NCBI RefSeq assembly: GCF_030013595.1
Contig: NZ_CP122768.1
Source: Escherichia coli
GTDB lineage: Bacteria; Pseudomonadota; Gammaproteobacteria; Enterobacterales; Enterobacteriaceae
Length of the DNA: 64,000 bases
Strand: one strand, 5' to 3'
Shown: piece by piece, positions 35,503 through 35,898 of the stretch
Position numbering within the stretch: the first letter of the stretch is position 1
How the letters are laid out: each line of letters starts with the position of its first letter
The notes under the pieces: model-generated
What the model was told of the DNA's origin: nothing
Database searches by the model: none
The model's input: only the letters and a program-made list of their open reading frames with translations
Translations under genes and position numbers: made by a program

Positions 35503-35898
35503 TTATGAGTGGTCATTAAAGGCATCCTTAATCCACTCAACCTCATTCCCGGTGAAGGCTACCACATCGAACCGGCAATCCACAGTATCAAAACTCCCAT
35601 TATGACGCGCGAGCCACAAGCGGGCAGTCTGTAATAATTTGTGTTGTTTGCTGCGGGTCACACTGGCTGCCGCGCCGCCATAAAGCGCAGAGCGGCGGTA
35701 ACGCACCTCGACAAAAACGGTGGTCCGGCCTTCACGCATTATCAGATCGATCTCGCCGCCACGCTCGTTCACGTTAGCGGCGATAAACCGCAGTCCTTTG
35801 CCTTCCAGCCAGCGACGCGCTTGTGCTTCCCACGCATCGCCGGTCTGTTTGGTGGTTAACTGGCGGGGACTACCTGACCTTGTTGGTACTGTAGCCAT
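35503..35898 (-). CDS. yraN: UPF0102 protein YraN
   Basis: 131-aa ORF; its 5' end overlaps the 3' end of lpoA by 43 nt. Confidence 0.85.

Follow-up and report, generated by a model that had tools for sequence, protein, structure and literature searches.

The longest genuine co-directional gene overlap identified by Palleja et al. 2008 is that of holD and rimI (PMC2478687), which comprises 32 nt in E. coli and 56 nt in Salmonella and Yersinia (PMC2478687). In the same work, all co-directional overlaps of more than 60 bp proved to be artefacts, which mostly arose from mispredicted starts with an alternative start located downstream (PMC2478687). Here, we analyzed the same-strand overlap between lpoA and yraN in a 64,000-nt stretch of E. 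coli DNA (the window). YraN has recently been described as a ComM-associated endonuclease that resolves the transformation D-loop, and nuclease activity has been reported for YraN homologues (bioRxiv 10.1101/2024.02.06.579203); the start of yraN is not discussed in that study.

The window derives from the E. coli chromosome. When a 901-nt query spanning the overlap was compared with 5426 complete E. coli genomes, all but two (5424) gave a match, with 95-100% identity, and the region covered by the query is annotated as lpoA, yraN and diaA in E. coli genomes. Within the window, rsmI lies on the plus strand, lpoA-yraN-diaA-dolP on the minus strand, and yraQ and yraR follow. The parts of the lpoA/yraN junction are located as follows:

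37892..35856, minus strand: lpoA coding sequence, penicillin-binding protein activator LpoA, 678 aa (ORF list and RefSeq, identical length)
35913-35911, minus strand: in-frame TAA, 5 codons ahead of the ATG, that closes the yraN frame
35909-35904, minus strand: predicted Shine-Dalgarno (SD) sequence AGGAAG for yraN, read from the sequence and made up of the lpoA codons for Arg662 (AGG) and Lys663 (AAG)
35898..35503, minus strand: yraN coding sequence, annotated YraN/UPF0102 PD-(D/E)XK nuclease, 131 aa (ORF list and RefSeq)
35898-35896, minus strand: yraN start codon ATG, the first start past the in-frame TAA (reads ATG GCT ACA GTA...)
35856-35898, minus strand: 43-nt same-strand overlap of lpoA and yraN, in different frames
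35859-35857, minus strand: yraN codon 14, TTA, which overlaps the lpoA TAA as TTAA and is no start codon in E. coli
35858-35856, minus strand: lpoA stop codon TAA, from the sequence (the gene end reads ...CCC GCC AGT TAA)
35772-35770, minus strand: GTG at yraN codon 43, the next canonical in-frame start downstream

The coordinates given for the 43-nt overlap in the original prediction are exact and match the RefSeq annotation. The shared stretch encodes LpoA residues (S665)W666-S678 and the stop codon and, in the other frame, YraN residues M1-L14 plus the first base of T15. The third position of the lpoA codons coincides with the first position of the yraN codons, so that the overlap has a length of 1 mod 3, the same phase as in the common ATGA and TAATG overlaps. 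As a consequence of this register, the A of the yraN ATG is the wobble base of lpoA Ser665 (TCA), and its TG corresponds to the first two bases of Trp666 (TGG). RefSeq/PGAP annotates the same 43-nt overlap in divergent strains as well as in strain GF43 and the K-12-type strain JM109, where yraN starts at 3376703, and a 66-nt junction sequence was matched in 5417 genomes, with an identity of at least 99% in 3534 and of 95-99% in the other 1883. Two divergent strains that were aligned (97.0% and 95.5% identity) have the ATG, the AGGA core and both reading frames intact. The overlap is real and conserved as well as ordinary, and it is already part of the reference annotation. The K-12-type strains differ from the window at 35904, where they carry AGGAAC for AGGAAG, corresponding to LpoA K663N and a weakened 3' end of the SD sequence, and at 35860, where GTC replaces GCC, corresponding to LpoA A677V and a silent CGC-to-CGT change in YraN Arg12; the AGGA core and the ATG are the same in both. 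LpoA itself matches the Pfam family LppC (PF04348) with an E-value of 1.3e-135. Its mechanically defined ORF reaches 10 codons further upstream to a TTG (37893-37922, minus strand; 688 aa), and we favour the ATG at 37892 (678 aa) as the lpoA start, in line with the annotation and the lipoprotein signal sequence.

As yraN is annotated to initiate inside another gene, its true start had alternatively been proposed to be an internal codon. Such a 5' over-extension of the annotation, with the real start downstream of the lpoA stop, would fit the finding that mispredicted starts are behind most long co-directional overlaps in databases (PMC2478687), as well as the observations that only 3-10 residues precede the invariant glycine in many YraN homologues, that YraN codons 2-14 are unconserved and predicted to encode a disordered segment, and that the counterpart of E. 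coli codon 14 serves as the yraN start in Yersinia. However, E. coli lacks a usable codon at which such a start could be placed. In the yraN frame, the ATG is followed by GCT ACA GTA CCA ACA AGG TCA GGT AGT CCC CGC CAG TTA and then, as codons 15-20, by ACC ACC AAA CAG ACC GGC, with GGC encoding Gly20; the window sequence contains no ATG, GTG or TTG in this frame between codon 1 and codon 43. A start further upstream is not possible either, because the frame is closed by the TAA located 5 codons before the ATG.

The remaining candidate, the GTG at codon 43, is hard to reconcile with the protein that yraN encodes. YraN matches the Pfam family UPF0102 (PF02021; E=3.6e-25, aa 24-114) with a score of 88.6 bits against a gathering cut-off of 23.6, and it aligns to the solved UPF0102 protein 3FOV. 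Our search yielded 6777 YraN homologues, and an alignment of 30 diverse homologues shows G20, E24 and G35 to be invariant, as are E49, D51, E64 and K84, which include acidic core residues; Gly20 represents the first invariant residue of the family. By sequence, E. coli YraN is accordingly assigned to the YraN/UPF0102 PD-(D/E)XK nucleases. In the AlphaFold2 model (mean pLDDT 87.7), helix 1 comprises aa 16-33, and residues 1-15 are devoid of secondary structure, with a mean pLDDT of 53 for residues 1-10. The codon-43 GTG lies past helix 1 and inside the Pfam domain, so that a start at this position would delete a core PD-(D/E)XK element, at the cost of helix 1 and the invariant residues G20, E24 and G35. 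A length of 131 aa is common to the Citrobacter, Salmonella, Enterobacter and Kosakonia orthologues. Coding periodicity is present in both lpoA and yraN, and the non-overlapping part of yraN displays a codon-position pattern typical of purifying selection.

Further arguments against over-extension are provided by the length of the overlap, which at 43 nt stays below the 60-bp limit above which every overlap was an artefact (PMC2478687), and by the nucleotide-level constraint acting on the SD sequence and start codon (see below). When compared with the three hallmarks of genuine co-directional overlaps that we applied from Palleja et al. 2008, the lpoA/yraN pair displays each of them: the partners are real, conserved genes, there is no ortholog-like alternative start, and the overlap is conserved and shorter than 60 bp. 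The proposal of an internal downstream start thus fails for E. coli on several counts, as no ATG, GTG or TTG precedes codon 43, codon 14 is TTA, and the annotated ATG has a conserved SD sequence. We consider over-extension highly improbable, and the true yraN start is very probably the annotated ATG at 35898. A search of supplementary files from TRAINSPOTTER, TetRP, Giess et al. 2017, INRI-seq and the Salmonella riboproteogenomics paper yielded no start-site entries for yraN.

The AGGAAG motif ends 5 nt upstream of the ATG, with a distance of 7 nt for its AGGA core, and its predicted duplex with the anti-SD sequence has a free energy of -4.4 kcal/mol. The yraN start thus has an SD-like sequence at a spacing in the range of 5-9 nt, although its strength is only moderate. 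Across the SD sequence and start codon, the lpoA frame reads AAC AGG AAG TTA TCA TGG, encoding N R K L S W. It includes AGG, the rarest arginine codon here, which is used for 2 of the 28 arginines of lpoA and makes up 3.1% of the arginine codons when the window's long ORFs are considered together. This AGG/AAG-encoded motif is, as judged from sequence and conservation, the putative dedicated SD sequence of yraN.

Synonymous sites in lpoA bear a clear imprint of this arrangement. We determined the third-position entropy in 25 Enterobacteriaceae-like species, using only codons whose amino acid is invariant; this and the other statistical tests count each species as independent. The stretch from lpoA codon -21 to codon -15, which includes the SD sequence, the spacer and the A of the ATG, has an entropy of 0.24 bit. 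The 28 invariant-residue codons located upstream of it reach 1.10 bit (Mann-Whitney P=1.3e-4), and those in the remainder of the overlap 0.74 bit (P=0.046). In all 25 species, Arg662 is encoded by AGG, whereas other conserved arginine codons of lpoA vary, with entropies of 1.59 and 0.99 bit. Moreover, a T at the end of an lpoA codon gives rise to a stop in the yraN frame whenever the next two bases are AA, AG or GA. Codons of this kind are absent from the overlap (0 of 86 positions at risk) but make up 23% (289/1236) in the preceding 100 codons. The low synonymous entropy and the lack of T-ending codons point to selection on the nucleotide sequence that keeps the start site functional and the yraN frame open, and the constraint at the SD sequence and start codon exceeds the needs of the host protein LpoA. 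With its conserved geometry, start codon and SD sequence and its suppressed synonymous variation, the lpoA/yraN overlap is more than a chance overlap of ORFs. The notion that yraN initiates inside lpoA in a different frame is thus supported by a conserved start codon and SD sequence and by the suppression of synonymous variation. Conservation of the upstream yraN codons, which had been suggested as a check, gives a split answer, since the start codon and SD sequence are conserved but amino acids 2-14 are not.

To place the junction in a broader context, we collected 80 loci by YraN alignment, using one genome per species, and mapped, for each locus, every candidate start relative to the lpoA stop and the codon for the conserved Gly20; together with two E. 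coli reference loci and the window, 83 sequences were analyzed. The E. coli geometry, in which 14 nt separate the lpoA stop from the Gly20 codon, recurs without gaps in 60 of the 83 sequences, or in 56 loci after leaving out four redundant E. coli copies. It is found in Escherichia, Citrobacter, Salmonella, Enterobacter, Klebsiella, Kosakonia, Kluyvera, Pluralibacter, Cedecea, Buttiauxella, Erwinia, Pantoea, Rosenbergiella, Serratia, Edwardsiella and Zophobihabitans, hence in families including the Enterobacteriaceae and Erwiniaceae. Klebsiella oxytoca has 11 nt between the lpoA stop and Gly20, with one codon fewer downstream of the stop. Among the 56 non-redundant loci, the codon homologous to the yraN ATG is ATG in 37, TTG in 11, GTG in 4 and CTG in 4 cases. 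A canonical start (ATG/GTG/TTG) is thus present in 52 of the 56 loci, and 46 of these 52 have kept the AGG, whereas the four CTG loci all lack it, with AGA, AGA, CGT and CGG as their arginine codons.

Ten loci have no overlap (four from Yersinia, four from Rahnella, Rouxiella and Serratia sp. M24T3), with a spacer of 60-360 nt and a separate AAGGA as the SD sequence of yraN. They keep the LpoA motif (H/N/T)-R-(K/Q)-L-P-W, but its arginine codon is CGC or CGT in 10/10 cases. Similarly, a gammaproteobacterial contig with a 1-nt TAATG junction has CGC at this position and a closed homologous frame (ATG GTT TGA), and another contig shows a 27-nt lpoA/yraN spacer with its own AAGGA. At the genus level, AGG occurs in 17 of 20 genera with an overlapped start and in none of 7 without (Fisher P=1.4e-4, a descriptive value uncorrected for phylogeny). 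An NTG at this position is forced by the invariant lpoA Trp codon and would be a start by chance in 3/4 cases, and the non-overlapping lineages also have TTG or GTG there, so that the avoidance of C at the start NTG carries no information. A stop in the homologous yraN frame was seen in one of the 10 non-overlapping loci, a comparison of low power.

Variation within the overlap follows the periodicity of the lpoA frame. In 55 distinct sequences, the entropy at lpoA codon positions 1, 2 and 3 is 0.63, 0.59 and 1.26 bit in the overlap, compared with 0.60, 0.44 and 1.17 bit in the non-overlapping part of lpoA, a pattern that, taken alone, also fits an untranslated 5' extension of yraN. The LpoA tail, W-L-x-Y-x-Q-G-x-(V/I)-V-P, is well conserved, and in an alignment with the solved LpoA structures of H. 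influenzae (3CKM and 5KCN), its residues coincide with the extreme C-terminus of these, indicating that it belongs to the folded C-domain. YraN residues 2-14, by contrast, are highly variable, with about 1-2.9 bit per position (for example, MEPVSSGTDRSGLL), and the segment that precedes Gly20 ranges from 3 to about 25 residues across the family. The YraN leader thus resembles a passenger, its sequence being determined by lpoA, with selection acting on the start site rather than on the peptide. The CTG codons in four loci of the same geometry and the TTGA or GTGA junctions of some Serratia-type loci (see below) likewise imply that the leader is dispensable and that the start has moved in evolution.

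Based on these findings, we propose that yraN is translated from the ATG at 35898 by means of its own SD sequence, mainly de novo, from an mRNA that it shares with lpoA (and diaA-dolP), a reading to which we assign a probability of about 0.78. A single lpoA-yraN(-diaA-dolP) transcript would be read for both genes, with ribosomes being recruited to the ATG by the AGGAAG motif between passages of ribosomes translating lpoA, and most initiation events would represent de novo initiation rather than re-initiation. In the shared 43 nt, the structured C-terminal strand of LpoA would dominate sequence evolution, and the disordered 14-residue YraN leader would 'ride' on the lpoA sequence ahead of helix 1. 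The geometry, the lack of any alternative start and the conservation of start codon and SD sequence at the nucleotide level are direct results of our analysis, and we infer from them actual initiation at this ATG, co-transcription and the mainly de novo mode.

The same ATG could also be used in a manner strictly dependent on lpoA, either by re-initiation of terminating ribosomes that move 43 nt backward, as in the 70S 'scanning' model, or because ribosomes translating lpoA open up the initiation region. Tight translational coupling of this kind, which the original prediction had considered, is possible, given that lpoA and yraN are same-strand neighbours, that a consensus scan of the region between them revealed nothing resembling a promoter or terminator (a weak negative), that their adjacency is conserved with very tight junctions (-1, -4, -43 and about -80 nt) in many lineages, and that backward re-initiation over 34 nt is attributed to the coat/lysis pair of phage fr (Adhin & van Duin 1990, as cited in PMC10666635). 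However, re-initiation in native E. coli gene pairs is nearly abolished at about 38 nt (PMC10666635), and the yraN start, rather than being positioned at or within a few nucleotides of the upstream stop, as in termination-reinitiation, precedes the end of this stop by 43 nt. A conserved dedicated SD sequence suits independent initiation and would be unnecessary for re-initiation, and this SD sequence is lost exactly where the start at -19 is lost. There is also no significant structure that would have to be unfolded, as the 121 nt around the start fold no better than shuffled sequences (z=-0.89), leaving no sign of an RNA structure sequestering the start; no Rfam element was detected at the junction. 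Furthermore, a pUC plasmid with yraN from 40 bp upstream of its ATG complemented the phenotype of a yraN::kan mutant (PMC5828445). Complementation by this clone, which is without almost all of lpoA, is consistent with independence from lpoA, although read-through from the vector lacZ-alpha may also have contributed. On balance, independent SD-driven initiation is more likely than tight coupling, and an obligatory dependence of yraN on lpoA translation appears unlikely.

A different explanation for the overlap would be a programmed -1 frameshift, for instance at GUC-CCC-G (35864-35870), that yields an LpoA-YraN fusion protein. The yraN frame is indeed the -1 frame of lpoA, the overlap contains a run of four C, and a 160-aa database protein (P0004) has both LppC and UPF0102 Pfam matches. 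However, the C-run varies in relatives (GTTCCCGCC, GTCCCGGCC, GTTCCGGTC), a stimulatory structure is missing, and the fusion would join an exported lipoprotein, LpoA, to a cytoplasmic nuclease, YraN, while P0004 is a cluster of two sequences from a single contig. With a slippery run that is not conserved and no stimulator, we rejected the frameshift fusion, whose probability we regard as negligible. P0004, an E. coli protein annotated as YraN in an N-terminally extended or fused form, is probably a frameshift, assembly or annotation variant.

Codon 14 of yraN is always N-T-(A/G), as its last two bases are at the same time the first two of the lpoA stop (TA or TG). With TGA as the stop and T or G as N, this codon is itself a potential start: Serratia plymuthica, S. 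bockelmannii, S. grimesii and 'Klebsiella sp. BIGb0407' have TTGA and an uncultured Cedecea has GTGA at the lpoA stop, so that these five loci (L037, L053, L065, L038, L039) could initiate yraN with an overlap of 4 nt, at a site 13 codons beyond the E. coli-type start. Four of the five have lost the AGG, and two of those four carry CTG at -19. Yersinia YraN begins with M-S-Q-R at the codon homologous to E. coli codon 14. E. coli has TTAA at this site, and the conversion of TTGA to TTAA takes a single G-to-A change, which is silent for lpoA but kills the TTG start. This pattern suggests that the 43-nt overlap may have arisen by loss of a stop-proximal start (TTGA to TTAA), followed by recruitment of the upstream NTG supplied by the Trp codon. 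Such an NTG would always have been at hand, because its TG belongs to the invariant lpoA Trp codon. It is tempting to speculate that the yraN start toggles in evolution, with a G/A switch controlling the stop-proximal TTG and lineages that lose it turning to the Trp-derived NTG located 13 codons upstream and gaining an SD sequence through recoding of the arginine codon to AGG. In this tentative scenario, which we hold to be possible rather than probable, the 14-residue YraN leader would be an evolutionary by-product, and the overlap could fix a low YraN:LpoA synthesis ratio by ribosome traffic on the shared stretch.

Several lineages show other solutions at this junction. In Aeromonas (L070-L076, L080, L082; locus ~2420-2520), LpoA has an acidic C-terminal extension (...EQGTAL*), and the lpoA ORF extends to 14 nt beyond the Gly20 codon of yraN. 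The sole conserved yraN start is an ATG 22-23 codons before Gly20 (25 in A. molluscorum, L076), which is preceded by GGAGGA and opens the leader MK.LL..L.QQW.NL.PS..SKG. The implied same-strand overlap of 80-89 nt is above the 60-bp ceiling (PMC2478687). In Yersinia (L057, L068, L081), the lpoA/yraN spacer of 100-360 nt contains one to three copies of a ~126-nt repeat with palindromic ends (…CCCGATGAGCTTACTCAAGTAAGTGATTCGGGTGAGTGA…), whose insertion apparently uncoupled the two genes in this genus; the repeat presumably resembles ERIC/IRU elements. Dickeya undicola (L040) and Brenneria roseae (L058) have CTG at both -19 and -6 and have lost the AGG codon of the SD sequence. As D. undicola yraN offers no canonical start until 16-17 codons past Gly20, it must, from its sequence, either use a non-canonical start or be decaying. 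In Xenorhabdus (L060, L063), a long, low-complexity C-terminal extension rich in Asn, Asp and Thr replaces the ...VP-x-x end of LpoA, and the yraN start is located shortly past the lpoA stop.

Our results mainly confirm the existing annotation: the 131-aa form of E. coli YraN and the 43 nt that its gene shares with lpoA are reliable. They also have practical consequences, because altering the 3' end of lpoA by deletion or tagging removes the SD sequence and start codon of yraN, and deletions at the 5' end of yraN truncate the conserved C-terminal strand of LpoA. Given these shared ends, phenotypes ascribed to either gene, such as those from thermosensitivity and Lpp+21 screens, may be confounded. 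Moreover, the lpoA-yraN junction provides a clean, small example of an SD sequence that is written into another gene by means of a rare codon.

Among the known systems, holD-rimI is similar in that its two genes share tens of nucleotides on the same strand, an arrangement that is conserved over Enterobacteria and differs in length by genus; correspondingly, the lpoA-yraN overlap measures 43 nt in most Enterobacterales and takes other values in Serratia, Yersinia and Aeromonas. It involves a different gene pair, however, and the rare-codon SD sequence and local synonymous suppression are described here for lpoA-yraN. With the ATGA/TAATG termination-reinitiation pairs (Huber et al. 2023, PMC10666635), lpoA-yraN has in common the orientation and the 1 mod 3 phase, and true junctions of these types exist at the homologous site, namely TAATG in a gammaproteobacterial contig and TTGA or GTGA in some loci from Serratia and Cedecea-like bacteria. 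In E. coli, by contrast, the yraN start lies 43 nt upstream of the stop, beyond the range of efficient re-initiation, and has its own SD sequence. The coat-lysis pairs of the phage fr/MS2 type (Adhin & van Duin 1990, as cited in PMC10666635) also have a downstream start tens of nucleotides before the upstream stop and in another frame. Lysis gene translation in these phages is described as dependent on coat termination, with no efficient independent initiation site, whereas lpoA-yraN possesses a conserved SD sequence.
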